64,000 nt of DNA, taken from the IMG/VR virus record IMGVR_UViG_3300045988_174170; one strand, 5' to 3'. Source of the DNA: a virus. A program made the translations under genes and the position numbers. This document shows positions 14,558-64,000 of this stretch, piece after piece; the first letter of the stretch is position 1, and each line of letters opens with the position of its first letter. The notes beneath the pieces were generated by a model that was given only the letters and a program-made list of their open reading frames with translations, had not been told where the DNA came from and searched no databases.

Positions 14558-14565
14558 GGTATAAT
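14558..14565 (+). promoter_or_regulatory. extended -10 promoter (a)GGTATAAT(g) upstream of 14607
   Basis: Second copy of GGTATAATG, 40 nt before the start codon. Confidence 0.4.
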
Positions 14566-14606
14566 GTGGGTTATGTACTGTTCAATTGACGGCTGGAGGC
14601 GTATCT

Positions 14607-14816: not shown

Positions 14817-15098
14817 TAAGTAGGAACGCGAGCGCCTAACTGTGAAGGAAGAAGTACCCATCGGGGCGGCTACAGGAACCACCGAAAGCATCGAAGCCGA
14901 AGGCAGTAAAGTACCTGAACCTACCGAAGTAACCGGTAGTATTCTTAGCGACGGAGAACGCGCTGAACTCAAAGAGGCTGAAGAGGCACCGGGTGCACTC
15001 AATGACTAGCCATATAGTTGTTACTGTCGTGTAACGCCTAGACGCAGTTCAGGTCACCCCCCCGCGAGCGCTTACTAGTTGCTTGTACGTGTATTGAA

Positions 15099-15141
15099 CA
15101 CCCCCTAGTGGTTATCCGCCGCTAGGGGGGGGTCTTTTTTT
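15099..15141 (+). terminator. rho-independent terminator
   Basis: CCCCCTAGTGGTTATCCGCCGCTAGGGGGGGG followed by TCTTTTTTT. Confidence 0.6.
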
Positions 15142-15250
15142 GGGGGGGGTGTTGCTTGTGTCTATATGTGCTGTCTGTGTCGCCTGTGGTAGGATGGGGG
15201 TATCTTATTGTTAGTATTGCGGGGGTGTACCCTGAGAGGATTTGATGTTT

Positions 15251-15424
15251 ATGATTGAGCCGTATGTGTCGTTGGTTTGGTGGGCTGTTGGTTGCCTTGT
15301 GGTTGCGGTGGCGTTTGAGGTGGTGGCTTTTAGGTGTGCGTCTGTTGGGCGGCGTTCTTGGTGTGGTTGGTTCTTCAGGCTGGGTTACAGTTTCGGTGGT
15401 TGAGCATAAGCGCCCTGGTAGGGA
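15251..15424 (+). CDS. 57-aa membrane peptide
   Basis: The ATG has GAGAGGA 10 nt upstream. The same 'GGA(A/G)GGATTTGnTnTTT-ATG' context recurs at 16024. Below the track size cut-off. Confidence 0.3.
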
Positions 15425-15656
15425 TAGTGCCTCTGAGATTCGTACTGCTTACACGTGGAGCGAGGTGCGCGGCAATGAGACTGTCGCTAAGACTACTACT
15501 GTTGAGCAGGATGACGTTTCGGTAGTTGAAGACGTTGCGGCGGGTGGCACGCCGTGGGTTGAGTACATTCCCATGTATCATCTTGTGCCTGCTGGCATTT
15601 TTGATGGTTCGCACGCTGACCCGGTTCAGGGTAAGCTCTGTGTTCGGGGGGCGTGA
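15255..15656 (+). CDS. hypothetical protein (alternative frame, TTG start; true start unclear)
   Basis: The C-terminal 85 aa are non-repetitive (VEHKRPGRDSASEIRTAYTWSEVRGNETVAK...), but there is no convincing RBS. Confidence 0.25.
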   Translation: MSRMCRWFGGLLVALWLRWRLRWWLLGVRLLGGVLGVVGSSGWVTVSVVEHKRPGRDSASEIRTAYTWSEVRGNETVAKTTTVEQDDVSVVEDVAAGGTPWVEYIPMYHLVPAGIFDGSHADPVQGKLCVRGA

Positions 15657-16023
15657 TACTGACTGTAAGGTGAACGCATTGCGGGCGAACATGAAGTATG
15701 TGCTACATGTCCCGGCGAGCGCCTAATAGTCAATGAACTATCACGCTAGAGGTGGCGTCAAGTTCCGGCGGGTAAGCGCCTCTAGTCGCACCCTAGTTGC
15801 TCAGCGGTAGCCCGTAGTGCCCACGCTCAGCTTTTGACTTAATGTGGGTACTACGGGCTTTTCTGTGCCCTCCTGTAACCTTTCAAGGATTCGGGTATTG
15901 TGGTTACCCGTGTCCGGCGCGTACTGTACATGGCGGCTTGTCTATGGTAGGATAGGTGTATCTTATATTGTTGTTACCCCCTGTTGGTTAGGGGGTGTGT
16001 TCTTTTGGAAGGATTTGTTTTTC

Positions 16024-17127
16024 ATGTCTGTTGTGTCTGTTTGCCCTGGTGATGTTGTGTCTACTGGTGTGGGTGTTCTGCATGTGGGGTCTGTTATTGT
16101 GGAGCGTTCGCGTGAGGGTGAGTCTTTTGCTGTGTCTGGTGTTACTGGTGATGGTGTGGTACGTGCGGGTGTTCCTGTCACTGATGATGTGGTTCCGTTG
16201 GCTGTTGATGCGTCTGATGCTGAGGCGTTGGTGTGGTTTGACCGTGAGCGTTATTTGAAGCGTTTGAGTGAGGCTGTGTTTTGTCCGGGTGATGGGTTTG
16301 CGGCTTTGGGTAGGTGTATGTCTGAGTGGGTGGATTTGTCTTTGTCTGACCGTGAATCGGTTGATGCTGTTCTTGAGCGTCTGGTCAAGGTTGATGCTGG
16401 TCTTGTTTGGGATTACCAGTGGGTTGTTAGGAAGCGTGCTGAGTGCTTGGAGGCGTTTGAGGATTTTCATGCGGGTTGGTTGAAGTATCAGAGTAAGCCT
16501 TGGAGTGAGCCGGTTTTGGGTGAATGTCGTAAGATTGATGCCCATAAGGTTGTTGGTGGTGTTGAGCTTAGGGTTGGTGGTATCTATCAGTTCCGGCGTG
16601 CTGATGCGCCTGTAGAGGGCGGGTATGAGTACTTTAAGGTTGTTAGTAGTAACTATAACCCTGAGATTATTCTTTATGGTGCGTCTACTAGGGTGAATGG
16701 TTGTTCGGGTGTTATTATTAGCAGTAATGGGGGTTTTGTTTCTTACGCTAACCTGCGGGCTAAAGTGGGTGATGAGCTGTTTTGGATTGATGCGGATACT
16801 GTGAAGCTTCTACCTATTGGCTCTCTTAATGATATTGACTCTTACCTTGAGTTGAGCGAGTATGCGGACGTTTCTCTTTCTGAGGCATTGCAGGGGATTT
16901 TCCTTGACATGTTCAGTGCCGATGAAGGTAAGCCTAAGTGCCTACCTGTTCGTGAGGAACTTGATGATGACCGCTACTGTTGGGATGATGATTATGCTAA
17001 GTGTCGTGGTGTGCTGATGTCTGCTACTGCTGACCTGCTGTTCGATATTGAGAAGAGCCTTGGGCATGTCCGGTGGGTGCGTGACCAGCTGAAAGTCTTC
17101 TACCGCGAACTAGGGTTCACCTTCTAG
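16024..17127 (+). CDS. hypothetical protein with N-terminal 'PGDVVST' motif
   Basis: Track ORF 15844. M61 (ATG 16024) has GGAAGGA 11 nt upstream. Motif CPGDVVSTG. Confidence 0.55.
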   Translation: MSVVSVCPGDVVSTGVGVLHVGSVIVERSREGESFAVSGVTGDGVVRAGVPVTDDVVPLAVDASDAEALVWFDRERYLKRLSEAVFCPGDGFAALGRCMSEWVDLSLSDRESVDAVLERLVKVDAGLVWDYQWVVRKRAECLEAFEDFHAGWLKYQSKPWSEPVLGECRKIDAHKVVGGVELRVGGIYQFRRADAPVEGGYEYFKVVSSNYNPEIILYGASTRVNGCSGVIISSNGGFVSYANLRAKVGDELFWIDADTVKLLPIGSLNDIDSYLELSEYADVSLSEALQGIFLDMFSADEGKPKCLPVREELDDDRYCWDDDYAKCRGVLMSATADLLFDIEKSLGHVRWVRDQLKVFYRELGFTF

Positions 17128-17296
17128 GGGCTAAGAGGGGTTAGTCTATGGAGTCTCTGACCAGGTTTAGGTAACCGCCTGTACTGGAAAGGTGGCACCC
17201 GTTTAGGTGTGTGCGTCTCAGTGGGTGCGGGTCTAAGTGGGTGTATTCCTTGGTGGGTGTGTTCCTTACTGGTGGTTGCCTGGATGGTTCACTGTG

Positions 17297-17340
17297 TGCG
17301 ATAATGGGTGCGAGTACCAACTCAAGTACTCGCACCCATT
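17297..17340 (+). promoter_or_regulatory. extended -10 promoter TGcGATAAT overlapped by a perfect 15-bp inverted repeat (operator-like)
   Basis: AATGGGTGCGAGTAC-caactcaa-GTACTCGCACCCATT starts inside the -10 element. Downstream lie GGAAGGAAGG and ATG 17374. Confidence 0.45.
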
Positions 17341-17373
17341 ATTTATTTCTTGTGGAAGGAAGGTGTACCTATC

Positions 17374-17715
17374 ATGGGTACTGTGCAGGATAGCCTGATT
17401 AGTAAGTTCGGTTGGGGTATCCGTGATTCGCTTGAAAGCTTTGAGGAAGCTGAGTGGAGCGAGGCGGTGGCGAACGCAGGCGTTTCCCCCGCTGAGGCAC
17501 GCCGCACGTTCATGGTTGGGCTGTTGCGAGAGATTGAGTCTCTAGTCAATAAGGCTAGGTATAGTGGTTCCATGTGGCGGCTACAGCACCTTGAGCGTAA
17601 AGTGAGCGAACTGATTGTTTCCAGGTTTGAGGAAGAAGAGAAGACGGTTCGTGGTCGTATCGACAAGTTGCGCGAAGCGCTAGAGACTGTAGTCGAAATC
17701 AACAGCCAGAAATAG
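17374..17715 (+). CDS. hypothetical protein
   Basis: Track ORF 17308. M23 is preceded by GGAAGGAAGG. 113 aa. Confidence 0.55.
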   Translation: MGTVQDSLISKFGWGIRDSLESFEEAEWSEAVANAGVSPAEARRTFMVGLLREIESLVNKARYSGSMWRLQHLERKVSELIVSRFEEEEKTVRGRIDKLREALETVVEINSQK

Positions 17716-17989
17716 TCATAAGTGCTTAACATTAGGCGAGAGAAGCCGCCATACGCCCTGTACCGCCCCTCTAAAGGGTCGCAAGTGCCTGTGGTGGCTC
17801 TTTCCTTTCTTAGGGGTGCGAGCGCCCACTGTGTCCACTGGTGGTGGTTCTGTTGCCGCCCGTGTGGTGCTAGTGGCTTAGTGCTAGTGAAAGCTTGTAT
17901 GAGCGCCTACGTGGTATCATTGGGGGTGGGATACCTTGAGGGTTCCCACCCTGTTTTGTTTACTGGCTTATTGAAAGGATGTGCCTGTT

Positions 17990-18406
17990 ATGGGTGTTGT
18001 TGGTTTTATAGATTTGTTTGCACCTTTCCGGTTCTTGATTGAATCCCCACCGTGGGTTTCATTCTTCGTACCCGGTCTTGTGCTTCCTGTGGCTTTGCTA
18101 GTTATTGGAGTTATTGCCACCGCTATTAACCCGGCACTTGGGTTTATTTCCGTGCTTTATGTCATGATTGCTTGGGTTGGTGGGGTTCCAATAACCTTGG
18201 CTGTGGTTCTTTATAACGCCGGGGTTCATGATAGTTTCCCTTTGGGTTTACTTGTGATACTAGGGTTCATGTCGAACACTGTTGTTGCGGCGACGGTGTT
18301 CGCGACTATCTGCTGGGTTCTTGAACGCTTTGTAGGTGAAGAGCCTGTAGAAGCTGTTGAGTCTGGACGGGTTAAGACCTACCCCCCATATGAGAAGACC
18401 TCTTAG
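17990..18406 (+). CDS. membrane protein related to family G (MFVDxxNxF...PxW..F.PG)
   Basis: Track ORF 17981 (GTG abutting the SD). The ATG at 17990 is 9 nt after GAAAGGA. 4 TM. N-terminus GFIDLFAPFRFLIESPPWVSFFVPG. Confidence 0.55.
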   Translation: MGVVGFIDLFAPFRFLIESPPWVSFFVPGLVLPVALLVIGVIATAINPALGFISVLYVMIAWVGGVPITLAVVLYNAGVHDSFPLGLLVILGFMSNTVVAATVFATICWVLERFVGEEPVEAVESGRVKTYPPYEKTS

Positions 18407-22323: not shown

Positions 22324-22423
22324 GGGCTTTACCTAGACCACGAACCGCTCGATAGATTGATAGAGCCCTAGAGACGCTAAAGCCTGTAGATAAAAGATAG
22401 TGGAACACGCCCCATAACCCCTA

Positions 22424-22478
22424 TGTGAGCTATTTCACGTGATTCTGGCTTGCATAGGGGTTAGGGGTGTGTCATAAT
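22424..22478 (+). promoter_or_regulatory. cassette promoter C3
   Basis: TGTGAgctattTCACg, TTGCAT, 17-nt spacer, TGtCATAAT. Confidence 0.6.
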
Positions 22479-22546
22479 AGAAGTACAGCAAGGAGGGAAG
22501 CCCCTAGCAATGAATCCACTATCTACCTACCGAAAGGTTACCAACC

Positions 22547-29896: not shown

Positions 29897-30379
29897 ATGA
29901 GCAAGAATCAGAGCCCCGAAATGGACACCGGCGACAAAATCACGTTCGCTTTCCTATTCGGATTCCCCCTTCTACTTCTCATCATTTTCATTGCCGGTTT
30001 GCTGATTACCCGTGAATCTATCCCGAACTATTGCCACATCAACCAACAAACCACCGACACGCCCATCGAGACGCGAAACTACAAGCCGTCTAGGTCATGG
30101 AGCACCCACGAATGGGGTTGGTGCTTCAACCCCACCAAAGCCACCTATGAGGGGTGCTGGAAGGACGAAGACCACTACGAACCGGCAACCTTTGAATGGC
30201 GCTACGTAGGAACCGAAGACTGGGCTAAGGAAACCCGCGAACCCGCCGGAACCGACAATGAGCACCCGTACCGCCGTGTCACCGAATACGACGTACAGAT
30301 TTGCGACGGACGCTCACAGCACGCGGACAAGAACGGGCAGATTGAATCCCACCAGGTATCCGTAAGCTACTACATCTAA
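29897..30379 (+). CDS. membrane-anchored protein, paralog family F (Cys/Trp motif)
   Basis: 160 aa with an N-terminal TM. Motif 'FEWRY...W......HPY.R.T.YD.Q.CD.R.QHA..NG.I..H' shared with 42209, 48296 and 54079. Confidence 0.7.
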   Translation: MSKNQSPEMDTGDKITFAFLFGFPLLLLIIFIAGLLITRESIPNYCHINQQTTDTPIETRNYKPSRSWSTHEWGWCFNPTKATYEGCWKDEDHYEPATFEWRYVGTEDWAKETREPAGTDNEHPYRRVTEYDVQICDGRSQHADKNGQIESHQVSVSYYI

Positions 30380-42167: not shown

Positions 42168-42208
42168 CTATACCCCAGACCCTATAGAAGAGTATGGAGC
42201 CGCAACAC

Positions 42209-42640
42209 ATGCGTAAGAAACTAGCCGCACTCACGGCACTACCTGTGCTACTACTGACCGGGTGCGATAGTCCTAACCTTTGTGAAGTGAACATCAATGA
42301 GACGCGGGTTAATGTTGAGGTTCGCAACGTCTCGTCTAGCTACACGTGGTACAGTACCGAGTACTACACCTGCCCCGACGGTAAAGGCGTATGCAGTCGT
42401 CAAGACCCGCACTGGGAAGACGGCGGCCTTGATTGGCGTGAAGCAGGTAAGTATGATAACCCTGATGAGGGGTGGACTCACTGGGTGGGTGACGCTAAGC
42501 GGGTAGATAACCTAGACCAACCCTATAAGCTGGACGTTGAGAGTGACGACATGATTTGTGACGGTCGCGAGAACTATAAGGCGCGTGACGGCGAAATCGT
42601 AGCTCACAATTCATACTCCAAGTTCTATGTACGTAGCTAA
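42209..42640 (+). CDS. lipoprotein, paralog family F
   Basis: Track 42194. MRKKLAALTALPVLLLTGC is a classic lipobox signal. Conserved 'ICDGRENYKARDGEIVAHN' motif. Confidence 0.7.
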   Translation: MRKKLAALTALPVLLLTGCDSPNLCEVNINETRVNVEVRNVSSSYTWYSTEYYTCPDGKGVCSRQDPHWEDGGLDWREAGKYDNPDEGWTHWVGDAKRVDNLDQPYKLDVESDDMICDGRENYKARDGEIVAHNSYSKFYVRS

Positions 42641-46288: not shown

Positions 46289-47341
46289 ATGCTGAAAAAG
46301 ACCCTAGAATCACTCAAGGATAAGCTTAATCATAAGGAAGCATACAGTGCCGATAGTGACCGTAAGTATGAAATCCTGCATGGTGACTATAAAGATATTG
46401 GTACGACCCGCTACTATCGCATTAAGGCACTACGTCATATTGACCGTCCCCTTAATCTACCCTCTGTGGAAGCGGGCGACCTGGGTGGGTACGTATCCCG
46501 TGAAGATTGTCTAAGTCATGAGGGGACATGCTGGGTTGGTGACATGGCGCTAGTGTCCGGTGAAGTGTCAGGTGACGCGCAGGTTAGTGGTCAAGCAACC
46601 GTGCAGTTCCCCGCAGTGGTTACTGGGCTATCCTATGTATCGGACTATGCGCGTGTACTGCATGGCGCATTTGTGGAAGATTCAAAGATTATTAACACTG
46701 CAACCGTGACCGGCAATGCAACCTACATAACTAACTCCATGATAGCTAAACTGAGGGGCGACGTACCCGAAAATGAGTCACCAATTCGGGAAACAATCAT
46801 AAAGCGTTCTGTCATTATGGATAACGCCCATGTAGCCAATGGTGTACGCATTGAAGATAGTACCGTTAGCGGCTCTGTGTATCTTGCAGGCAATATCTCT
46901 GTGAAAGACCGTTCCATGATTCATGGCGCAATCGCACTAGTAGCAGAATCAGACCCACTTAGTATTGAGAATGTCATACTGGAAGAACCAGTGAACAGCA
47001 ACGGCTCACCCAACGCATTTACGACCGGTTACAGGGATAAGGGGTGGAAGATTACCCCCGATAGCTGTGACATTACCGAACTATCGCACAAGTCACAAGG
47101 TGCCTCAGATGACCTTCAGAAACATATAAGGGACAGTGAAAAGCACCATAGTAACCTTGCGTGGGTAAATCCCGGACAGGGCAAGTTCACTAGGCATTGG
47201 CGTAAATCGTATTATCTCAGGGCTACCCGCTGGAGTACACGAAATCCCAATGATGAGCTACTGGAATACGCGGCAACCAATAGGGTTCTAGGCGTTTACT
47301 ACAGGAAGCCCCTAGAAGACGTTGAAGAATTTGAAGATTAG
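46289..47341 (+). CDS. hypothetical protein with C-terminal beta-helix-like repeats
   Basis: 350 aa. Repetitive V/I-x-G-x-x motifs (VSGEVSGDAQVSGQATV ...), similar in character to the C-terminus of 59154. Confidence 0.6.
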   Translation: MLKKTLESLKDKLNHKEAYSADSDRKYEILHGDYKDIGTTRYYRIKALRHIDRPLNLPSVEAGDLGGYVSREDCLSHEGTCWVGDMALVSGEVSGDAQVSGQATVQFPAVVTGLSYVSDYARVLHGAFVEDSKIINTATVTGNATYITNSMIAKLRGDVPENESPIRETIIKRSVIMDNAHVANGVRIEDSTVSGSVYLAGNISVKDRSMIHGAIALVAESDPLSIENVILEEPVNSNGSPNAFTTGYRDKGWKITPDSCDITELSHKSQGASDDLQKHIRDSEKHHSNLAWVNPGQGKFTRHWRKSYYLRATRWSTRNPNDELLEYAATNRVLGVYYRKPLEDVEEFED

Positions 47342-48295: not shown

Positions 48296-48769
48296 ATGAG
48301 TGACGACGAAGAAACCATTGGTGGCATCATTGCTAAGGCGGTAACCGCAATGGTTGTAGGGCTAGGTGTATTCGGCATTATCAGTGCCAACGAAAAGCCT
48401 AATACATGTGTCAGGAACGAAACCAGCCAGGAAGTTCGGGTAGAAATCCGAAACTACAGCCCCGGATACTACGAAAGCGTCCACGAAATGCGCCCGTGCC
48501 TGAACGCTGACGGGTCTATGGGCTCATGCCCCTACGACGGCTCAGAATGGCACAGTGGTAGCTACCAGTGGCGATACGCTGACAAGTACACAGACCCCGA
48601 GGAAGGTTGGACTAACTGGAGTGGTGACCCTGAAAAGTCCAGCACCGGTTACTCTTACTACCTCCACCAAGAAAGCGACACCGCAGTCTGTGATGGACGT
48701 GAACGATTCAAAGACAAGGACGGGCAGGTTATCAAGCATAACGTAAGCGACACGTTCTATATGGCATAA
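48296..48769 (+). CDS. membrane-anchored protein, paralog family F
   Basis: 157 aa with an N-terminal TM. Conserved 'YQWRY ... VCDGRERFKDKDGQVIKHN'. Confidence 0.7.
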   Translation: MSDDEETIGGIIAKAVTAMVVGLGVFGIISANEKPNTCVRNETSQEVRVEIRNYSPGYYESVHEMRPCLNADGSMGSCPYDGSEWHSGSYQWRYADKYTDPEEGWTNWSGDPEKSSTGYSYYLHQESDTAVCDGRERFKDKDGQVIKHNVSDTFYMA

Positions 48770-48893: not shown

Positions 48894-49322
48894 ATGAGCA
48901 CACCCCTCATCCCCATCACGAAGGTGCGGTTAGCTACAAAGTCGAACAATGTACTCAAGGCACACCTGAGCAACAATATTATCCGTAAGAACGGCGAAGA
49001 ATACTGCACAATCAAGGACACCCTACGTGGCATTGCCGCAATCGGTGAAGAACACGCCTATGTCGATTACTGGAACGAAAAAACGGCACCCACATTTAGG
49101 ACAGCCGGATTTGGTCTAGTAAACACCAAGTCAAAGACCGTGCCACTCATCATTGCTAGACGCAAGGCACTAAACGCACCCCTAGAAGCATTGAAAGAAC
49201 CCAGCCTCCTGGTAGGTCGTAAGTTCCCCAGTAAAGACGGTTCCTACTACAGTAGGATTACCAGCGCACACATGACAGATAAAGGCAACCTATATGTTGC
49301 CTACGGTCTAGTCCTTCGATAG
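48894..49322 (+). CDS. hypothetical protein, family E1 (first copy of duplicated block)
   Basis: 142 aa, paralog of 50119..50559 (IPI.KV.L..KSN..L......I..). Confidence 0.7.
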   Translation: MSTPLIPITKVRLATKSNNVLKAHLSNNIIRKNGEEYCTIKDTLRGIAAIGEEHAYVDYWNEKTAPTFRTAGFGLVNTKSKTVPLIIARRKALNAPLEALKEPSLLVGRKFPSKDGSYYSRITSAHMTDKGNLYVAYGLVLR

Positions 49323-49339
49323 AGCAGGAAACAAGTACA

Positions 49340-49714
49340 ATGAACACGATACCCCTCGACGCTTTCAGCTTCACCTCACGTGAAGTAAAGGAACTACTGC
49401 AAGTAGCATACAAACCCGTCAATGGCGGATACACCCTGAAAGACATCCTAGCCGCCATAGAAAAGCTAGAGGCTGGTTATGCCAGCACAGATAGCCACAC
49501 CTTCACAGAGGCACTATTCGGTAAGGTTAGCCGTGGAAAGGTTGCCCTCACAGACGACGCAAACCTACTAGGCACCTTTGACGCAAGCGTCATGCTCAAC
49601 CCTGGTAAGCTGGTAGGTGAAAAGGTGACACTAGGAAACAGTATCAAGGGGCGTATCGAGAATTTCCGAATCACCCAATACGGCGGACTACTCCTAGCTA
49701 TCCACGAAGAATAA
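49340..49714 (+). CDS. hypothetical protein, family E2
   Basis: 124 aa, paralog of 50584..50976 (YTL.DIL...E.L). Confidence 0.7.
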   Translation: MNTIPLDAFSFTSREVKELLQVAYKPVNGGYTLKDILAAIEKLEAGYASTDSHTFTEALFGKVSRGKVALTDDANLLGTFDASVMLNPGKLVGEKVTLGNSIKGRIENFRITQYGGLLLAIHEE

Positions 49715-50118: not shown

Positions 50119-50559
50119 GTGATTTCGGGAATCCCTATCCCTGTCAAGAAGGTAAAACTTGACAGTAAGAGCAACCGTGAGCTAAGGGGTTGCATTGGTG
50201 AAGATATTATCTATCATAATAACCAACCGTTCGCCACGCCGCGTAATATCATGAAGGGGCTCGCCCTGCTGGAAGAATCAAGCGCCTATTATTATCGTGG
50301 GGAATTTATCTTCGCCACCGCCGATATTTTTGTTCACGTAGGATTCGGCGCAGTAGACCCCATTAAGAAGACCGCCCCGGTCTTCATGCTTGGCGAAAAG
50401 ATTCTTGATGTCCCGCTGGAAGTCGTAAAGAATCCTGATAAACTAGCGTGTCAGCGGTTTAATTGGGGCGAGCCATGTAATCCAACTTTCAGGGTTTCAG
50501 ACGTTTACGTGTCGGATACTGGAAGCGTTTATGTTGCATACGATGCTAGTGGTTTCTAA
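50119..50559 (+). CDS. hypothetical protein, family E1 (second copy; GTG start)
   Basis: 146 aa, AAGGAAA RBS. Confidence 0.65.
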   Translation: MISGIPIPVKKVKLDSKSNRELRGCIGEDIIYHNNQPFATPRNIMKGLALLEESSAYYYRGEFIFATADIFVHVGFGAVDPIKKTAPVFMLGEKILDVPLEVVKNPDKLACQRFNWGEPCNPTFRVSDVYVSDTGSVYVAYDASGF

Positions 50560-50583
50560 AGCTAAAAGATAGGAAGATAAATC

Positions 50584-50976
50584 ATGGTGTATTTGGCATG
50601 GCGTGGAATTTCAGTAAGTAAGATTCAGGATAAGGAAGTCGCACGGGTACTTGTGGCAACATGTAAGCCCGTCGCTGAAGATAGGTACACCCTAGAGGAT
50701 ATTCTAGAAGTTCTTGAAAATATGGATAAAAAGAATCTTCAGACGTGGGCTGGGTATATGTTTAGCCGAGTACAGTTCGGGTCACCTGTTGATGGTCGAG
50801 TGTTCTTGTACCGCGACGCTTCGCTTATCGGGTCGATTAACGAACGGGGAATGATGAATCAGCGGAACCTCGTTGATGAGATTATTACTAGCAAGAACGG
50901 GGAGCGTGTAGGACAGATTGCGGCTGTTCGTGTAACCCGGCTAGGTGATGTATTCCTAGCTATTAAATATGACTAA
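50584..50976 (+). CDS. hypothetical protein, family E2 (second copy)
   Basis: 130 aa, GGAAGA RBS. Confidence 0.65.
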   Translation: MVYLAWRGISVSKIQDKEVARVLVATCKPVAEDRYTLEDILEVLENMDKKNLQTWAGYMFSRVQFGSPVDGRVFLYRDASLIGSINERGMMNQRNLVDEIITSKNGERVGQIAAVRVTRLGDVFLAIKYD

Positions 50977-51525: not shown

Positions 51526-51608
51526 CCCCTTCAACCCCCCTTGCCCCCTGAAGTTGATGAGAAGCTACAGGGGGTAAGGGCACCCAAGCCATAACACCCT
51601 AAACCTTA

Positions 51609-51663
51609 TGTGAGCTATTTCACCTGATTTTAACTTGCGTGGGGGTTAGAGGTGTGCCATAAT
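51609..51663 (+). promoter_or_regulatory. cassette promoter C20
   Basis: TGTGAgctattTCACc, TTGCGT, TGcCATAAT. Confidence 0.6.
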
Positions 51664-51745
51664 AGAAATGTAGCAAAGGGAAAGCCCCTAGCAATGAGTT
51701 CACCATCTAACCTTTGTCGCAAAGACCGAAAGGACAAGCCCACCA

Positions 51746-53521: not shown

Positions 53522-54091
53522 ATGGAAACCACGGAAACCAACAAGTACCCCCGCCTCAGTGAAGACAATTTCGACTCCGGCGAGTTCTACCAGTTCCTCA
53601 AGAACGCCCTCATCGGTCGCCGCATCATGAAGCTCACCTCTACCTACATTGAGCTTGATAACGGATACACTGTCAAGATTCGCCCTAACTGGGGTTGCGA
53701 CTGTGGCAATGGTAGCGCCGTCATTGAATCAGATTATGTCGGTGAACCCCTAGATGCCGCCGTTATGAATGTTGATTATGAGGAAATCAAAGAGTACGAC
53801 GACCGCTATCACGAAGGCTTCAACATCTTCATCTACATGAAGAACAAGGTCATCAACATTGAAGGCACCGACGCATATGAAGACGGAAACTACTACGGCT
53901 CCGGTTTCTGGGTAAGCGCAGAAATGCCAGTAGACCACGAACGTGAAGTGGAGGAATCTAAGCGCCGCGAGGAAGAAGCCGCTAGGAAGCGTAAGCGGGC
54001 TGGCGGCGCAATGGGGTACATGGCAACCCGCCCCATTATCCGCCCTAAGAAGAAGGTAAAGCCGGGGAATAACCTGAAGTGGAAAATCTAA
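53522..54091 (+). CDS. hypothetical protein with basic C-terminal tail
   Basis: 189 aa. The C-terminus (EEAARKRKRAGG...RPKKKVKPGNNLKWKI) is lysine/arginine rich. Confidence 0.6.
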   Translation: METTETNKYPRLSEDNFDSGEFYQFLKNALIGRRIMKLTSTYIELDNGYTVKIRPNWGCDCGNGSAVIESDYVGEPLDAAVMNVDYEEIKEYDDRYHEGFNIFIYMKNKVINIEGTDAYEDGNYYGSGFWVSAEMPVDHEREVEESKRREEEAARKRKRAGGAMGYMATRPIIRPKKKVKPGNNLKWKI

Positions 54092-54525
54092 TCAGACGAG
54101 CTAAGCAGTTCCTTCTAGCTTTCGGGTTCATCGCCGGTCTAGTCGGTATCGTTGCCGGGGTGAACTATATTACCCCTAAGACGTGCCGGGTCAATGAGCA
54201 TAATGACGATACCCCTATTCAGGTGCAGAACTATGTAGAAGAGTTTAACGGCGAAACGTTACAGCACACGTTCTGCACCGAAGACGGTGCTTATAAGCCG
54301 TGCATGAAGATGATGCCTACCCACCGCGCCGAAAGCTTTGAGTGGCGATACGAGGGAACCTGGAATTGGGTTAAGCATGAAGGTAAGCCCACGGGTAAGA
54401 ACAACAGTCACCCTTACCACAGGTTCACTCACTATGACCAGCAGGTATGTGATAGCCGCGAACAGCACGCAGGAGTGAACGGTAAAATCACCAAGCATGT
54501 TGTAGAAGAATACTTCTTCATCTAA
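54079..54525 (+). CDS. membrane-anchored protein, paralog family F (GTG start overlapping upstream gene by 13 nt)
   Basis: 148 aa with an N-terminal TM. Conserved 'FEWRYEGTWNW ... HPYHRFTHYDQQVCDSREQHAGVNGKITKH'. Terminator 54547..54596. Confidence 0.6.
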   Translation: MENLIRRAKQFLLAFGFIAGLVGIVAGVNYITPKTCRVNEHNDDTPIQVQNYVEEFNGETLQHTFCTEDGAYKPCMKMMPTHRAESFEWRYEGTWNWVKHEGKPTGKNNSHPYHRFTHYDQQVCDSREQHAGVNGKITKHVVEEYFFI

Positions 54526-54546
54526 CTACACGATATGTGCCCACAT

Positions 54547-54596
54547 AAGGGGCACCTACTCGCTAACAGTAGCAGGTAGGTGCCCCTTCTTTTTGC
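54547..54596 (+). terminator. rho-independent terminator
   Basis: AAGGGGCACCTACT ... AGCAGGTAGGTGCCCCTT followed by CTTTTTG. Confidence 0.6.
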
Positions 54597-54745
54597 TATC
54601 GGGTCATTAACCACGCCCGCTAAGTTGATAAACTTACAGCTTCACGTGTACACTAAGAAACATCAAAGGTTCACAGGGCACTATGAACACGCCCCTAAAG
54701 GTTCACGACACGAACCCGTAGGGGGTAGTAGACTGTGAATCTGCA

Positions 54746-56314
54746 ATGTTCCACGACAGGAAGAATAACTACATAATGCAAGTAGCGAACCTACTAATTA
54801 TCGCCGTAGCCGCACTCATCATCATTGGTATCGGTGTGGCAATCTTCATGGCGGGTATCGTATCGGCAAGCCCCGGCGAGGTGAAGGTCATCTCAGGTCG
54901 CCGTGGTATCCGTGTACTGCAAGGTAAGACTGGTTGGCGTGTCCCGTTCATTGAGCGTGTAGACTCCATGACCGCAAGCATGGTATCTATCGACGTGAAG
55001 ACGAACGGTAGCACCCCCACCAACGACTTTATCAACGTGCAGGCTGAAGCTGAAGTGAAGGTACGTATCGGTCTAGACCGTAAGGAACTGTTCGAGGTTG
55101 CCGCTAGGAACTTCCTCGGTAGGACTGATATTGAAATCGCTGACTCGGTACGTGAAACCCTTGAAGGTCACCTACGTTCCATCATTGGTGAGATGGAGCT
55201 GAAGGCTATCGTCCAAGATAGGCAACAGCTCGCTAACAAGGTTCAGGAAAACGCAACGAACGACCTAGAGGAAATGGGTCTAGAAATCGTAGCGTTCAAC
55301 ATCCAGACCGTCCGTGACGATAAGGGTGTTATCGACAACCTTGGTGCTGACAATACCGAAAAGATTCGACAGGAAGCGGCAACCGCTAAGGCTATCGCAA
55401 CCCAGAAGATTGAGGAACAGCAGGCAAGCTCTGAAAAGCTCGCAAACGACGCACGTGTCGCCGCTGATAAGGAAATCGCTAAGAGGCAGAACGAGCTCGA
55501 AATCTCTAAGAGCCAGCTGAAGGCTGAAGCTGAGAAGGAACGAGCAATCGCTGAAGCCGCGTTCGAGACTGAGTTCGAGAACCAGCGAAGCCGAACCGAA
55601 GCCGCCCGCGCTAACGCTAACATTGTCCGACAGGAAAAGGAAGCACTAGTCAAGGCTAAGGAAGTTGAAGTCCGAAAGCAGACCCTAGTCGCTGAGGTTG
55701 AAGAAACCGCGAACACTGAACGTCGAGCACGTGAACAGCGCGCACAGGCTGAACTATTCGAGAGCATGAAGAAGTCCGAAGCTGAAGCGTACCGCCGCCA
55801 GCAGGAGGCAGAAGTGCTGAAGATGACCGCTGAAGCTGAGGCGTACCGCCGTCAGCAGGAAGCGGAAGCTCTCAAGATGACGGCAGAAGCGGAAGCAGAC
55901 GCAATCCGCCTACGTGGTGAAGCAGAAGCAGAAGCAGTGCGCCTCAAGCTTGAAGCAGAAGCAGACGGTCTAGACAAGAAGGCTGAAGCAATGCTCAAGA
56001 TGAAGGATGCCGCTGTTATTGAGATGCTTGTCAATGTCCTACCTGAAGTTGCCCGCGCTGTATCTGAGCCGCTGAATAATGTTGATAGCATCACCATGTA
56101 CGGTGAAGGTAATGCCGGGCAGATGGTTGGCGACATTATGACCAGCATGGATAAGGTAACCGCCGGACTAGGACTTGATGTTCGTGACCTGATTCAGGCA
56201 ACCGTAACCGGTCGAGCTATTGGTAGTGGAATCAATGCCGCTACCAAGAAGGATGCTGAGACGGTTTCGGCACCTCTGAACCTAGATGACCTAGAGAATG
56301 AGGACGCTATCTAG
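54746..56314 (+). CDS. flotillin (SPFH/band-7 domain protein, FloT/YuaG-like)
   Basis: An N-terminal TM is followed by an SPFH domain. 'LEGHLRSIIGEMELKAIVQDR ... LEEMGLEIVAFNIQTVRDDKGVIDNLG' closely matches Bacillus FloT 'LEGHLRSILGSMTVEEIYKNR...LAKMGLVIVSFTIKDVRDKNGYLESLG'. A long EA-repeat coiled coil (AEAEAYRRQQEAE, twice) precedes a C-terminal 'MLVNVLPEVARAVSEPLNNVDSITMYGEG' that matches FloT 'MIVKMLPEYAKQAAAPLSNIDKITVVDTG'. The alternative start at ATG 54776 is possible. Confidence 0.85.
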   Translation: MFHDRKNNYIMQVANLLIIAVAALIIIGIGVAIFMAGIVSASPGEVKVISGRRGIRVLQGKTGWRVPFIERVDSMTASMVSIDVKTNGSTPTNDFINVQAEAEVKVRIGLDRKELFEVAARNFLGRTDIEIADSVRETLEGHLRSIIGEMELKAIVQDRQQLANKVQENATNDLEEMGLEIVAFNIQTVRDDKGVIDNLGADNTEKIRQEAATAKAIATQKIEEQQASSEKLANDARVAADKEIAKRQNELEISKSQLKAEAEKERAIAEAAFETEFENQRSRTEAARANANIVRQEKEALVKAKEVEVRKQTLVAEVEETANTERRAREQRAQAELFESMKKSEAEAYRRQQEAEVLKMTAEAEAYRRQQEAEALKMTAEAEADAIRLRGEAEAEAVRLKLEAEADGLDKKAEAMLKMKDAAVIEMLVNVLPEVARAVSEPLNNVDSITMYGEGNAGQMVGDIMTSMDKVTAGLGLDVRDLIQATVTGRAIGSGINAATKKDAETVSAPLNLDDLENEDAI

Positions 56315-56340: not shown

Positions 56341-56392
56341 AAGCCCCTAACCTATAGAGTATGAAACCTCTTAGGTTGGGGGCTTTCTTTAT
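56341..56392 (+). terminator. rho-independent terminator
   Basis: AAGCCCCTAACCTAT ... TTAGGTTGGGGGCTT followed by TCTTTAT. Confidence 0.55.
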
Positions 56393-56430
56393 ACCTCTAT
56401 TGGGGCGTGATGTATATCATAGTATTTAAC

Positions 56431-56459
56431 TTGAAAGCACGTCTAAAGTGTGCCATAAT
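56431..56459 (+). promoter_or_regulatory. cassette promoter C21 (degenerate upstream half)
   Basis: TTGAAA, 17-nt spacer, TGcCATAAT. Confidence 0.45.
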
Positions 56460-56518
56460 AGACATATAGAAGTTCCTATAAGAAACCCAAGCCACTACAG
56501 GAAAGGAAAAGGTACACA

Positions 56519-57806: not shown

Positions 57807-57948
57807 CCAAGAGCAACCAACACGAACTACCCCTCCCTTAGCGGACAGTAAACAGTACTCTGTTTTGTTTACCCGGGGGGGGGTACGTTTTTGCCCACAA
57901 CACGGAAAGCGTACCCACCAAACAAGCAGAAAGGACACAGGCAAATAT

Positions 57949-58572
57949 ATGCTGACAGCACCAGCAAACATCACCGTGCAGATACTAGGGCTAGGCGTGA
58001 GCGCCGGTCTATTCTTCATTGGGTACGCAAACCGCACCTGGGTCAGAAACATCAGTCTAGGAATGTGTGCCCTAACAGCCGCCCAATCATTCCTCCTAGG
58101 ACAAACCGGCGTTCTAGCCATGAACCTAGTGAACCTGGCATACTACATCATGCTACTATTCGAGAACCGTCTAGCGTTCGTCCAGTCACCCATCTACCGT
58201 GCCGCATCAATGAGTGTAGCAGTCGGTACCGCCGCCGTCACACAGTACGGCATACTAGGCTGGGGCTTATGGTCACCCGGCACCCTAGCGCTACTAGGTG
58301 GACTAACAGGACTCATTATGGCGCTACTAGAAAACTTTGTAGCACTCAAAACCGTAACAGTTCTCAATGTGGCGTGCTGGGTCAGCTACTATATTCTAGT
58401 CGGTAGCTACACTAACATTATCGGTAACGGGCTAGTCCTCGTAGGTGTAGCATTAAGTGTATGGCAACGTATGCACACCACCGAACCGCCGCCCATCACC
58501 TCGTCCGGTATCACCGTCCCGGTCGATACTGGAAGCCTGCGACAAGCAGAACTACACACCGAACAACAATAA
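57949..58572 (+). CDS. multi-pass membrane protein
   Basis: The track ORF 57865 begins in a basic low-complexity stretch. M29 follows GAAAGGA. At least 5 TM. Confidence 0.55.
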   Translation: MLTAPANITVQILGLGVSAGLFFIGYANRTWVRNISLGMCALTAAQSFLLGQTGVLAMNLVNLAYYIMLLFENRLAFVQSPIYRAASMSVAVGTAAVTQYGILGWGLWSPGTLALLGGLTGLIMALLENFVALKTVTVLNVACWVSYYILVGSYTNIIGNGLVLVGVALSVWQRMHTTEPPPITSSGITVPVDTGSLRQAELHTEQQ

Positions 58573-58749
58573 CCATATAGGGGCAGTTAAGCACCGTAAG
58601 AGCACAAACATTGAACCGTGCCCTTACGGTGCTTTAGTACATATAGGGGTAACCTGCAAGATGCAGTAACCCAGCTTACTAGACCCAGCAGTAGCACCAC
58701 TGGTAGAATGAAACAATGAATACTATCCTGAACGAAAAGGTGACCGCCT

Positions 58750-59112
58750 ATGTTTGTTGATTTTGTAAACATGTTCGCAGACCCGACTGGGTTCTTTAGT
58801 GCCGCACCCCTATGGTTAGCCTTCGTGATACCAGGGGTTATCACAGCCGTGCCTGTGGCTCTAGTGTGGTGGCGGCTAGGGTGTCCCGTGTGGGAAGCCA
58901 CGTTCAAGGGCGGCACCTCAATCATTATTGGGGTAATCCAGGCTGTTGCCACTGTCTATTGGGGTATCGTTGTTACACCCGCGTTCATTGCACATGGAGT
59001 CATTGAAGGGAACCCCCTAATCATTTCCGGTACCTTCGGCTGGGGTGCAATGATGCTAATTTCCAACCTAGTACCCTGGGCTGTTACAAAGTACAAGGAA
59101 CGCTACAACTAA
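58750..59112 (+). CDS. membrane protein, paralog family G
   Basis: 120 aa (MFVDFVNMFADPTGFF..AP.W..F..PG). Confidence 0.7.
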   Translation: MFVDFVNMFADPTGFFSAAPLWLAFVIPGVITAVPVALVWWRLGCPVWEATFKGGTSIIIGVIQAVATVYWGIVVTPAFIAHGVIEGNPLIISGTFGWGAMMLISNLVPWAVTKYKERYN

Positions 59113-59153
59113 AAGCCAGTCGTAAGCCCACAGAAAGGTGAAACCCTATAACT

Positions 59154-60491
59154 ATGACCAAGCATAAAACCGCCACCGGTTCCAGTAAGAAGCCGCTAGT
59201 CCCCGTGTGCCTTACCCCCGAGCCTCAAGGCAGTGTAACAGCTGAAAACGTTCCAGACCCAAAAACAGTGGTAGCTCTCATTGGGCAAGAACAGCGCCTC
59301 ATGAACCTATGGGTTGAAGGTGGAACAAGGGCACTAGCTGAAATCCTAGAAGTACCCGAAGACGTTCTAGCTAAACGTTGGAACCGAATCAAGAACCACT
59401 CTAACTTCGTAGACGGCTACCTACCTATGGAAGCACGGGTAAGGTGCCTTCCGCCTCTTGAGCCAATAGTTGAGGCCTTGGAAAAATATGCGCACGAGAC
59501 ATTCCGTGACCTCGACTATACGGAAAGGGACACGCTCGTAATGATGCCCCGCCCAGACCTCGGGTGGGTATCCCTAGCAGAGTACGCCCGCATCAACGAA
59601 TCATACCGATACCTGGAAGTTGCCGGGGTAGTCATCAAGAAATACTACGACTACAAGAAGCCGCCCCGCTACGACCTAGACCCAGGAATCAGCAAAAGCT
59701 ACCAAGTGCTACCCGGAACCGTGTTTAGCCGCTACACAGGCAAGACACTACGGTTCGGACGTAAATACCGCGAAGCACACAAGCACCTACTAGCATACCC
59801 TCGCACCTCCGCAAGGACACACAGGGTAGTATGGGACAAGCCGGAAACCTACGAAGGGGAAAAATACTACCCCGTAGAAGCTATCCACGACTTCACGCAA
59901 CCATACGGTAAAGACGATTGGAAAGTTCGCGCCGGTGAACAAGGCGGATACGTCAAAGAATACGACAATCTCGAACCTTACAGCTGGGTAGCAGACACCG
60001 CACACGTAAAAGGTAAAGTCAGTGATGGTTCACTAGTAGCAGGTAACGCCTATATTTGCGAATACACTACCGTCCTAGCCCGCTCCATCATCTCAGGTGA
60101 CGTGCGAATCAATAGGAAAACAAAGGTTGCAGGCTCCAATGTCACGGGTGAAGTCACTATCGGCACCAAGCCCACCCTAAGCGGTGAAGAGCTGACACTC
60201 TACTATGCGACAGTAGACGGTAAGGTAACCATTGACGACAATGTTAAATGCATTGCACAAGCAACCATTAGCGGCGACATTGAAATTAACGGTGACCTGA
60301 CTATCGCCAACAACATTAGCCTAACCGGTTCAATGGCTGTAAACTCTACCGGAGGGTATGAGCTGTACGACTCCATAGAGGGCAAGCTAGACCATAAGGG
60401 AAATAAGCCCATATTTGAGCTACACAATGGTAGCGACAGGCGATTCCACCGCAGTATGGGACTCTACCAGCAGAAACTGCCGGTAGACTAA
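59154..60491 (+). CDS. family H protein: HTH-like N-domain plus C-terminal beta-helix-like repeats
   Basis: 445 aa. 'LIGQEQRLMNLWVEGGTRALAEILEVPEDVLAKRW' has a helix-turn-helix pattern and aligns to 'LIGREQWLMDIYVQGGIPAVAKILDIPVSTLTYRW' of 60962. The C-terminus has V/I-x-G repeats (VAGSNVTGEVTIG...ISGDIEINGDLTI). Confidence 0.6.
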   Translation: MTKHKTATGSSKKPLVPVCLTPEPQGSVTAENVPDPKTVVALIGQEQRLMNLWVEGGTRALAEILEVPEDVLAKRWNRIKNHSNFVDGYLPMEARVRCLPPLEPIVEALEKYAHETFRDLDYTERDTLVMMPRPDLGWVSLAEYARINESYRYLEVAGVVIKKYYDYKKPPRYDLDPGISKSYQVLPGTVFSRYTGKTLRFGRKYREAHKHLLAYPRTSARTHRVVWDKPETYEGEKYYPVEAIHDFTQPYGKDDWKVRAGEQGGYVKEYDNLEPYSWVADTAHVKGKVSDGSLVAGNAYICEYTTVLARSIISGDVRINRKTKVAGSNVTGEVTIGTKPTLSGEELTLYYATVDGKVTIDDNVKCIAQATISGDIEINGDLTIANNISLTGSMAVNSTGGYELYDSIEGKLDHKGNKPIFELHNGSDRRFHRSMGLYQQKLPVD

Positions 60492-60578: not shown

Positions 60579-60944
60579 ATGTACGTTGAATTTGTGAACA
60601 TGTTCACCGACCCGACCGGGTTCTTCAAGACAGCCCCAATGTGGGCATCCTTCATACTGCCCGGCGCTATCAACGCCCTACTTATTGTCATTCCCGCCGC
60701 CATAGCTGGTCTTATCGCCCACGATGAAGAGTTTGCCCTGTCTACCTCTTGGGTATTGAGTGTGTTGAATCTAGCTGTAGGTACTATATTTTGGGGTATT
60801 ATCGTTTCGCCTGCATTTGAGGCGCACGGCGTGAACCCTGGATTCCCCACTGTAATATCATTTGCACTAGGTTTCCTGGCAATGGCATCTGAAACCTGCC
60901 TGGCAACTCTACTATTCACAAAATTTGTAAGCAATAACTTCTAA
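60579..60944 (+). CDS. membrane protein, paralog family G
   Basis: 121 aa. Confidence 0.7.
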   Translation: MYVEFVNMFTDPTGFFKTAPMWASFILPGAINALLIVIPAAIAGLIAHDEEFALSTSWVLSVLNLAVGTIFWGIIVSPAFEAHGVNPGFPTVISFALGFLAMASETCLATLLFTKFVSNNF

Positions 60945-60961
60945 GGAAAGCAACATAAACT

Positions 60962-61951
60962 ATGGCAACCGATGTTGTGATACCCGCCCTGTTTCTAGAC
61001 CTCCCATGCAACCCATATTCACTAGAGTACTGGGAACTTACCGCTTTCCCCGATAGTTTCAAGGTAATATCTCTCATTGGTAGGGAGCAGTGGCTTATGG
61101 ACATCTACGTGCAGGGCGGTATCCCCGCTGTGGCAAAAATCCTTGACATTCCTGTTTCAACACTCACCTATCGGTGGTGGAAGTTCAAGAAACACCACTG
61201 GAAAGACCTAGCTGTAGAGCCCCCGTTTGGGATTAGGTGCGAATATGACTATGAGAAGCTATTGGCAGACGATTACTGTATCCATGAGACAGCTTACAGT
61301 AAAGGCTCTAAATGCATAACTTGGAAACTTGAAAGGTTCTGCATGGCTTCCGAGAAACGGCGAGAACTTAAAGAGCTTCTAGAAGAAGCAAGTAAAGGCA
61401 TTGAGTTGTCATATGAAGACCGGGCATGGATACTTTTCGCACCCCGCCTAGACCTTGGACTATTGTCGCTAGTAGACTACGCGGAACTGTGCAACCTTGA
61501 CAAGGAAGTGTCGGCACTCATTATCAAAAACCTTCTAGCTTACAAGAAGCCCCCACCGGAAAAGCTTGTTGATGGTCGCCCCGAATGGATGCGCCAATAC
61601 ACACTAAACACAGCATTTACCGACGATAACGACAAGGAACCCGCCTACAAGAAACAGCTACTAATGCGCCGGTACCGCAAGAGCCAATGCTACAAACTCG
61701 CATACCCACGGTACAAGAGTAGGAAGTTTCGGGTACTCTGGAACGAACCTCAAACACATAACGGGGTAACCTTCTATCCGGTTGAAGCACTATGGAACCT
61801 CATGGCTGAAAACAAAGGGCACCCAACTAGCATTAAAGCCGGTTCACGCGGTGGATATGTGACAGCTGAATATGTTGCAGAGAACGGCTGTGGCACATGG
61901 ATTCTAGAAGGCGAATACGCCACAGTGAAGAAATCCGCTAATGAAAGGTGA
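60962..61951 (+). CDS. family H protein (HTH-like N-domain); TGA stop in frame with next gene
   Basis: 329 aa. The C-terminal block 'KLAYPRYKSRKFRVLWNEPQTH.GVTFYPVEAL....GGYV' is shared with 59154. The TGA at 61949 overlaps the GAAAGGTGA RBS of 61958. Confidence 0.6.
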   Translation: MATDVVIPALFLDLPCNPYSLEYWELTAFPDSFKVISLIGREQWLMDIYVQGGIPAVAKILDIPVSTLTYRWWKFKKHHWKDLAVEPPFGIRCEYDYEKLLADDYCIHETAYSKGSKCITWKLERFCMASEKRRELKELLEEASKGIELSYEDRAWILFAPRLDLGLLSLVDYAELCNLDKEVSALIIKNLLAYKKPPPEKLVDGRPEWMRQYTLNTAFTDDNDKEPAYKKQLLMRRYRKSQCYKLAYPRYKSRKFRVLWNEPQTHNGVTFYPVEALWNLMAENKGHPTSIKAGSRGGYVTAEYVAENGCGTWILEGEYATVKKSANER

Positions 61952-63793: not shown

Positions 63794-63866
63794 GCCCCTA
63801 TCGTCTAGCAGCCAAGGATATTGCCCTTTCACGGCAAGGACACGGGTTCAAATCCCGTTAGGGGTA
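63794..63866 (+). tRNA. tRNA-Glu: tRNA-Glu (anticodon UUC)
   Basis: Manual fold with acceptor GCCCCTA/TAGGGGT (G1-U72), D-stem GTCT/GGAT, anticodon stem TTGCC/GGCAA with loop CTTTCAC (U33, UUC, A37), T-arm ACGGG-TTCAAAT-CCCGT, discriminator A, no encoded CCA. Confidence 0.7.
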
Positions 63867-64000
63867 CGTAACACATTCCTTTCGAGTGTGTTCACCCACC
63901 TCGCCTGCGAGAGACGGGAGAGGTGACTAATCTAAACGGACATTCACGTGTCAAGGCCAGGGTCAGCTTCGGCTGGCTTGAGGGTCACCGTCTAACAAAA

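Follow-up and report, generated by a model that had tools for sequence, protein, structure and literature searches.

The 64,000-nucleotide (nt) stretch of viral DNA analysed here (IMG/VR record IMGVR_UViG_3300045988_174170; hereafter the window) encodes a full-length FloT-type flotillin, and sequence comparisons indicate that this gene is a stable, long-kept element gene under purifying selection and not recently captured host DNA. The window belongs to a previously undescribed family of extrachromosomal elements of about 240–306 kb from human oral metagenomes. Loci on other contigs with which it was compared carry L numbers below.

A complete flotillin kept by the element

We found the protein to be, with near certainty, a flotillin, as judged by domain, model and structure matches. 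Its longest open reading frame (ORF; 54746–56314, + strand) is full length at 522 amino acids (aa). Pfam identified a Band_7/SPFH domain (PF01145; 5.7e-21, 75.8 bits against a cutoff of 23.6, aa 41–216) and a Flot domain (PF15975; 6e-9, 36.5 bits against a cutoff of 27, aa 380–458). Positions 42–474 of the 477 in the NCBIfam FloT model NF058507 aligned to the protein with 215.6 bits, against the model's equivalog cutoff of 700 bits, which makes it a member of the family only and not a FloT equivalog. The flotillin-1 and flotillin-2 chains of PDB entries 9bq2 and 9l3g also matched, in their SPFH regions, at 1e-46 and 2e-35. The stretch from aa 216 to 420 consists of 21% alanine and 20% glutamate, and tandem repeats of 54 nt (2.2 copies) and 33 nt (2.5 copies) lie within this Ala/Glu-rich region. 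The original prediction had recognized a likeness to FloT (YuaG) over the SPFH domain, the EA repeats and a C-terminal block; Pfam, NCBIfam, PDB and composition all agree with it, and the SPFH domain was recovered when searched for directly.

A Kyte–Doolittle scan revealed a single hydrophobic segment, at the N terminus (aa 7–44). No basic residue precedes this segment and four follow within 15 residues, so that by the positive-inside rule the body of the flotillin would lie on the cytoplasmic side of the membrane, like that of FloT.

The flotillin occupies the same locus in at least ten assemblies at 96–99% identity; assemblies with the same gene order include L001, L015, L016, L019, L039, L066, L079, L088 and L098. 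Among 5.8 billion proteins, we observed a tight group at 92–99% identity to it, none at 65–91%, and next-best matches of at most 64%. The nearest flotillins in GTDB come from metagenome-assembled genomes (MAGs) of Catonella (62–64%), followed by Lancefieldella rimae and an Atopobiaceae MAG (about 51–54%). Comparison with L001 gave a synonymous divergence (dS) of 0.16 and a non-synonymous divergence (dN) of 0.015 for the flotillin gene (dN/dS 0.09); the genes around it had dS values of 0.08–1.3 and amino-acid identities of 59–98% (rows 45462 and 47451, with mis-framed coordinates, are left out of this table). The GC content of the gene (0.524) and of its third codon positions (GC3, 0.544) matches that of its neighbours. 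Constancy at one locus, the low dN/dS, the matching composition and the distance of all outside relatives together support a gene long kept by the element. The concern attached to the original prediction, that the gene might prove to be captured host DNA, was not borne out by these comparisons.

The clade of the window flotillin is about equally distant, at 60–62% identity, from the Catonella flotillins and from those of a set of low-GC contigs (L002–L005, L011 and L012; 25–29% GC), and the latter are 78% identical to the Catonella chromosomal protein. The Catonella locus (L007) is genuinely chromosomal, in a sugar-metabolism context (DeoR, PFK and fucose isomerase). That a chromosomal gene is among the closest outside relatives, and that the window gene has a moron-like layout, would fit a host flotillin acquired by chance and carried as a functionless passenger. 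We consider this extremely improbable in view of the strong constraint on the protein, whose high identity is kept across assemblies while that of neighbouring genes varies from 45% to 98%, its element-like composition and the remoteness of the nearest homolog outside the element.

Start codon, leader and transcription of the flotillin gene

The true start of the flotillin is almost certainly the ATG at 54776 (giving 512 aa) and not the one at 54746, because the gene calls in L015, L016 and L019 begin at this second ATG (products of 512–515 aa) and because in L088 and L039, where the DNA upstream of the flotillin is wholly different, homology to the window resumes 22 nt before it. Cellular homologs also begin just ahead of the hydrophobic segment. 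An exact look-up of the 522-aa product returned no match because gene callers use the 512-aa start. A ribosome-binding site (AGGAAG) lies 12 nt before ATG 54776 and is unpaired in the fold of the leader, a hairpin that spans the upstream ATG and whose outer stems are kept in four genomes (Table 1). An Rfam scan of this leader matched no family; the hairpin may be a translational control element.

We also found that the flotillin lacks the standard promoter of the element. The intergenic stretch that holds a weak promoter candidate, with a predicted transcript start at 54661, is nearly identical in the window and L001, and no second copy of the flotillin upstream region was found elsewhere in the window. 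In L088 and L039, a TnpB-like insertion replaces both the promoter and the leader. The terminator preceding the flotillin, a 42-nt hairpin with a U-run, is kept in L001 and L088. Judged by its flanking terminators, non-standard promoter region and structured leader, the flotillin gene is its own transcription unit.

Table 1. Coordinates of the flotillin gene, its predicted signals and neighbouring features in the window
Feature	Position	Strand	Basis or remark
Flotillin coding sequence, FloT-type SPFH scaffold, 512 aa	54776..56314	+	Pfam, NCBIfam, PDB, relatives' gene calls
SPFH/Band 7 domain, aa 41–216 in 522-aa numbering	54866..55393	+	Pfam
Ala/Glu-rich 'EA' repeat region, 54-nt and 33-nt tandem repeats	55778..55967	+	Composition, repeat scan
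Flot PF15975, C-terminal flotillin domain	55883..56119	+	Pfam
Predicted intrinsic terminator between family-F gene and flotillin, 18-bp interrupted stem and U-run	54547..54597	+	-33.2 kcal/mol, z = -5.36
Weak sigma-70-like promoter candidate, TTGATA-18-TACACT	54625..54654	+	Not the element's standard promoter
Predicted structured 5' leader over upstream ATG 54746	54660..54749	+	-40.5 kcal/mol, z = -4.05
Predicted intrinsic terminator 3' of flotillin gene	56341..56394	+	-30.9 kcal/mol, z = -4.38
Standard element promoter, TTGAAA-17-TGCCATAAT within GTGTGCCATAATAGA	56431..56462	+	Serves next gene (56519), not flotillin
Family-F gene, four invariant Cys, lipobox lost	54079..54525	+	Paralog comparison, alignment, structure prediction
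Family-F paralog	29897..30379	+	Paralog search
Family-F paralog, intact lipobox LLLTGC	42194..42640	+	Paralog search
Family-F paralog	48296..48769	+	Paralog search
DUF7448/phrog_2131 gene, end overlaps family-F start by 13 nt	53522..54091	+	Pfam, PHROG
Two multi-pass membrane proteins downstream	57865..59112	+	YgjV-like (57865–58572), 120-aa (58750–59112)
Composite promoter examples	22422–22481, 51607–51666, 56431–56462	+	Promoter pattern

The upstream neighbour is probably not a flotillin partner

The gene directly upstream of the flotillin encodes a 148-aa protein with an N-terminal anchor and a beta-rich domain. In the original prediction this product was one of four paralogous, membrane-anchored proteins with a Cys motif, and was proposed to stand in for NfeD as the partner of the flotillin. 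The first part proved correct: the 54079 product matched the products of the genes at 29897 (2e-29), 48296 (2.5e-12) and 42194 (3e-7), and all four, which we term family F, have an N-terminal hydrophobic segment and four invariant cysteines in common. A profile search brought the family to 29 proteins, most of the full-length ones on contigs of 200–291 kb; none has a Pfam domain that would define family F, and the family is confined to these elements. Most members, including the 42194 paralog, carry a lipobox (LLTGC or ALTSC), which suggests that the ancestral members of family F were lipoproteins. The lipobox has been lost from the 54079 copy, whose N terminus is probably retained as an uncleaved anchor or carries a type I signal. 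The lipobox of the family and its four conserved cysteines would place the family-F domain outside the cytoplasm, on the opposite side of the membrane from the predicted cytoplasmic body of the flotillin.

The proposed partnership, by contrast, found little support. No NfeD family member was detected among the 92 ORFs of the window, a Pfam scan of the 54079 product matched nothing, NfeD included, and structure prediction followed by two fold searches yielded neither an OB-fold nor another known fold for a confident model. A terminator and 250 nt lie between the two genes; the family-F gene instead overlaps the end of the DUF7448 gene, which would therefore be its operon partner in place of the flotillin (tblastn of the DUF7448 protein returned no matches). 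About 1.9 kb of inserted DNA with a 526-aa TnpB-like ORF separates the family-F and flotillin genes of both L088 and L039, and both genes remain intact. Three of the four paralogs lie far from any flotillin. Family F is also absent next to the flotillins of other elements (L002–L005, L011 and L012), Catonella (L007) and L. rimae (L008); upstream genes of flotillins elsewhere encode NrdD, a G5-domain protein, an uncharacterized product, DeoR or a DUF3592 protein.

A family-F protein that replaces NfeD as the membrane partner of the flotillin is thus quite improbable, even though the window and all close relatives have the two genes side by side, a pairing that occurs only inside this element family. 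The N-terminal membrane segment and a size about that of short NfeD proteins are also in its favour, as is one more distant 250-kb element in which at most 1 kb separates a family-F gene from a gene for PspA (see below). Given the missing NfeD domain, the terminator, the split by insertion, the absence of the family elsewhere and the probable extracytoplasmic location, we infer that the neighbour is an independent exported gene of a lipoprotein family.

In L. rimae (L008, 4326–4769), a 147-aa DUF3592 membrane protein is encoded directly upstream of the flotillin instead of NfeD, and it may be a lineage-specific flotillin partner there. We considered this protein as a relative of family F and rejected it, as the two have zero similarity.

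A possible role in membrane maintenance alongside PspA

We tentatively favour a reading, to which we assign slightly less than an even chance, in which the flotillin is an element-encoded scaffold for membrane maintenance that acts alongside PspA. This reading draws on the presence of PspA on the same contig, on a parallel with the sigma-W genes of Bacillus subtilis and on a neighbourhood rich in membrane and exported proteins. Contig ODJI01000013.1 holds both the flotillin (L039) and a 255-aa PspA/IM30 protein (L022), about 21.6 kb downstream of the flotillin. PspA_IM30 (Pfam, 5.6e-30) is present among the long ORFs of related contigs, and homologs also occur in L044, L070, L105, L013 and L014. 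The L022 protein (locus 454–2650, - strand) matches solved PspA/Vipp1 structures, and ahead of its gene lie genes for a multi-pass membrane protein of 135 aa and a lipoprotein of 177 aa, an arrangement that resembles liaIH or pspA-ydjGH. Membrane stress, for example from phage infection, switches on the sigma-W genes of B. subtilis, among them floA, floT and pspA-ydjGHI, and there PspA is brought to the membrane by an SPFH protein (PMC8581546); PspA neighbourhoods with band 7/FloT proteins have also been reported (PMC9239133). The surroundings of the window flotillin encode family F, a YgjV-like protein and two cassettes that each pair a membrane protein with a beta-helix protein.

In the mechanism that we propose, the N-terminal hydrophobic segment would anchor the flotillin in the cytoplasmic membrane of the host and leave its body in the cytoplasm. 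Its SPFH and coiled-coil regions would mediate oligomerization into assemblies of the flotillin type. Together with the PspA of the element, the flotillin would keep the membrane fluid, sealed and energized as the element fills the envelope with lipoproteins and membrane proteins of its own. The element would thereby supply its own version of the envelope-stress proteins of the sigma-W and Psp type.

An alternative is that the flotillin serves as a scaffold that concentrates and stabilizes membrane complexes encoded by the element, such as a PilT-like ATPase apparatus, the membrane and beta-helix cassettes, or sites of assembly and egress. The flotillins of Staphylococcus aureus and B. subtilis scaffold secretion and signalling complexes. 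The window encodes a PilT/PilU-family (T2SSE) ATPase at 3732–5288 (+ strand; 212 bits against TIGR01420), and AAA_10 (HerA/VirB4-like) and AAA_31 (ParA/CpaE-like) ATPases are encoded with a YdjM hydrolase just upstream of it (L017, 4508–7454). Two tandem two-gene cassettes lie directly downstream of the flotillin (58750–60491 and 60579–61951), each combining a small multi-pass membrane protein (58750 and 60579) with a phrog_5070 bactofilin-like/LbH beta-helix protein (59154 and 60962). The block best conserved with L001 (92–98% at the amino-acid level) encodes the flotillin together with the YgjV-like protein, the membrane protein of 120 aa and the beta-helix protein of 445 aa, and an SPFH protein has been detected in virions of Erwinia jumbo phages (PMC7760394). 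However, the other flotillin-bearing elements have none of these neighbours beside their flotillins, the ATPase cluster lies 50 kb from the window flotillin and the clients are candidates. We regard this alternative as unlikely.

Somewhat less likely still is a protective role, in which the flotillin would alter membrane order or seal lesions and so block DNA injection by superinfecting phages or blunt depolarizing abortive-infection effectors. Its gene has its own terminators, in a moron-like layout, within a long array of small, mostly uncharacterized genes typical of early or host-takeover regions. Phage lipoproteins such as T5 Llp and TP-J34 Ltp mediate superinfection exclusion, and the four family-F copies resemble such lipoproteins. 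PADLOC defence models, however, had zero matches for the flotillin and five neighbours, and we know of no flotillin that acts in superinfection exclusion or anti-defence. Protection also overlaps largely with membrane maintenance; the one difference is where the insult to the membrane comes from.

SPFH cages of Escherichia coli enclose the FtsH protease, and B. subtilis flotillins interact with FtsH. An HflK/C-like role, in which the flotillin would modulate host FtsH and tune the degradation of element or host regulators, is nevertheless improbable. The HflC model TIGR01932 did match, but weakly (22.4 bits against a cutoff of 134.4), so that the HflK/HflC equivalog level was not reached; the protein has the architecture of a flotillin, with its Flot domain and EA repeats; and neither a lysogeny module nor an FtsH-related gene was seen nearby.

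Returning to membrane maintenance alongside PspA, several points weigh against it. The flotillin and PspA genes are about 22 kb apart and share no operon; PspA lies outside this window, and the co-occurrence of the two was shown on one contig. The topology of the flotillin has a single basis, the positive-inside rule, and its function is argued by analogy. The nature of the element also bears on the matter: its PilT-like, AAA_10 and AAA_31 ATPases could point to a plasmid-like element, and scans for capsid, terminase and tail genes, which covered some 77 kb around the window and the promoter-bearing loci, about a quarter of the genome, detected none.

A broader proposal, which is possible but well short of probable, is that giant oral elements, whether jumbo phages or Inocle-like replicons, carry an envelope-stress toolkit that combines a FloT-type flotillin with PspA/IM30 (of the ESCRT-III type) and small membrane or lipoprotein adaptors. 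Such an invader-supplied 'phage-shock response' would keep the host membrane sealed and energized throughout a lengthy life cycle that makes heavy use of the membrane. Control of the flotillin would be post-transcriptional, by way of its conserved structured leader, and the copies on unrelated large oral elements at 25%, 29% and 49% GC would be repeated, convergent acquisitions of one function.

The giant oral element

Human oral metagenomes, PRJEB6997 among them, yielded contigs of 0.2–1 Mb that encode proteins identical to those of window ORFs. A nucleotide search with the 52–58 kb region against INPHARED phages gave no match, as did IMG/VR scans with flotillin peptides and the promoter pattern. 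About 70 small co-directional ORFs fill the window from 18 to 64 kb, and PHROG matches were obtained for 5 of the 92 window ORFs. At least 22 intergenic regions (20554–63630, + strand) carry one conserved composite promoter of about 60 nt, which consists of TATGTGAGCTATTTCAC, about 10 nt, CTTGCA, 12 nt and an extended -10 element, GTGTGYCATAATAGW. A CRP-like TGTGA-N6-TCAC palindrome (TGTGAGCTATTTCAC) forms the upstream half of this promoter and was observed 22 times against 0.41 expected. The 22 palindromic promoters suggest that much of the region is under the control of a CRP/FNR-type regulator encoded by either the host or the element. A metagenome scan for the promoter core returned 90 loci, most at about 49–51% GC and many on contigs of 242–306 kb.

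The tRNA-Glu gene of the window (63794–63867) is the first of a 16-tRNA array that runs past the window end (L019, 11257–14485, on a 267-kb contig). One predicted tRNA of this array has a four-base (taac) anticodon. The long ORFs of related loci encode a T4-type RNA ligase, a polynucleotide kinase (PNK)/phosphatase, the thymidylate synthase ThyA, TnpB elements and PspA. The tRNA array, the RNA ligase, the PNK/phosphatase, ThyA and the 22 uniform promoters favour a phage. Pfam and PHROG scans detected no capsid, portal, terminase or tail gene in the 92 window ORFs, the flanks and 57 long ORFs of related loci, a search that reached about a quarter of the genome. Between a jumbo phage and a plasmid-like replicon, we lean modestly toward the former. 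The largest ORF (1,149 aa) gave no match by tblastn, and another large ORF tried for phage identity turned out to be TnpB. One window ORF has a weak DotD match, and the element may carry a module that resembles a pilus or secretion system.

A third paralog of the beta-helix proteins lies at 46289–47341, and further duplicated cassettes occupy 48894–49714 and 50119–50976. The + strand is A/C-rich from position 1 to about 14200, with an AT skew of up to 0.70 and a GC skew of -0.50 at 12–14 kb, and turns G/T-rich at 14200–18000; this bias is independent of the coding strand. Non-coding DNA rich in ACA and AGACA occupies 13450–14200 and is followed by a G/T-rich tract. The skew switch near 14200 could mark an origin, a terminus or a divergent control region. 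Inside the skewed region, the ORF at 11905–13443 (- strand; 512 aa, Gly/Val/Ser-rich, no family match) could encode a fibre- or adhesin-like protein or be an artefact of composition.

TnpB genes of the IS605 type (Cas12f1-like TNB) are scattered among the loci (L088 4299–5879, L039, L003 1801–3210, L013, L014 and L020). L013 and L014, from a more distant element with family F (250 kb, 43.5% GC), encode SLH-domain proteins, a GH25-SLH lysin and a sortase, as well as an antigen I/II-type adhesin and SocA/Panacea modules. These genes are clues to a host with an SLH-binding cell wall.

Occurrence and comparison with known systems

SPFH proteins in phage genomes have been on record for over ten years without being given a function, and the function of bacterial flotillins is itself debated. 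Phage-borne SPFH proteins as such were thus already known; what stands out here is a complete FloT-type protein, the lack of NfeD and the presence of PspA in the same genome family. The window adds a complete flotillin under strong purifying selection in a widespread, uncharacterized family of giant oral elements, a newly flagged family with an unusually uniform promoter architecture. The co-occurrence of flotillin and PspA suggests a testable idea, that mobile elements import scaffolds for membrane maintenance. As a single-gene unit without NfeD, the flotillin offers a natural minimal system for asking what a flotillin does alone, and a misleading lead toward an NfeD-like partner has been removed.

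Flotillin homologs (E <= 1e-5) were present in 11 of 50,697 INPHARED records, two of the matches being annotated as flotillin family proteins with 22–27% identity in the SPFH part only, and in 24 of 72,556 PLSDB plasmid records, mostly records of at least 160 kb. The view that such a gene is uncommon on phages and plasmids therefore holds for these two collections but not for large element-like contigs from the mouth, where flotillins occur in at least three GC classes (25%, 29% and 49%). Flotillins on contigs that differ so in GC suggest that several unrelated large oral elements acquired them. The low-GC contigs L002–L005, L011 and L012, all of which carry flotillins, look like large phages or Inocle-like elements. 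Their flotillins have NrdD, NAMPT, PRPP synthetase, RNA ligase/PNK, a Gp5.9-like RecBCD inhibitor and DNA methylases as neighbours.

The window flotillin resembles B. subtilis FloT in its anchor, SPFH domain, EA-rich coiled coil and Flot domain, and is colinear with the FloT model throughout. It differs in its score (215 bits against the 700-bit equivalog cutoff), in the absence of an NfeD (yuaF-like) gene from the whole window, and in its location on a giant mobile element, where it forms a single-gene unit that has terminators of its own and a structured leader. The chromosomal flotillins of Catonella sp. and L. rimae, its closest cellular homologs, are equal to it in length and share its architecture, but they lie in ordinary cellular contexts, and the L. 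rimae copy has DUF3592 upstream.

SPFH proteins have been noted in RaK2-like phages, Eneladusvirus jumbo phages and Gibbsiella phage GIB1, and the authors call their role unclear (PMC7760394, PMC13239085). Like these and the SPFH proteins of csAssE-Sib and Vibrio phage KIT04, the window flotillin is an SPFH membrane protein that is probably phage-borne. The phage proteins, however, are short SPFH/stomatin-like lipoproteins (phrog_200) or match in the SPFH part only at 22–27%, whereas the window flotillin is complete with its Flot domain and comes from a genome family that encodes PspA.

Inocles, extrachromosomal elements of 245–395 kb from oral Streptococcus, carry tRNAs, insertion sequences and genes for the cell wall and membrane, and flotillin goes unmentioned in the paper that describes them (PMC12340149). 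Compared by description only, the window element is likewise a giant oral extrachromosomal element with tRNAs, insertion sequences and many membrane genes, but it has 49% GC where Inocles have 24–32%. The contigs at 25–29% GC could be Inocle-like.

The sigma-W set of B. subtilis (floT, floA and pspA-ydjGHI) differs from the genes of the element, which are mobile, 22 kb apart and without known control by a stress sigma factor, and whose SPFH protein is of the membrane-anchored FloT type instead of the anchorless YdjI type. The element nevertheless resembles this set in bringing together an SPFH scaffold and PspA/IM30, with small membrane proteins encoded before PspA.

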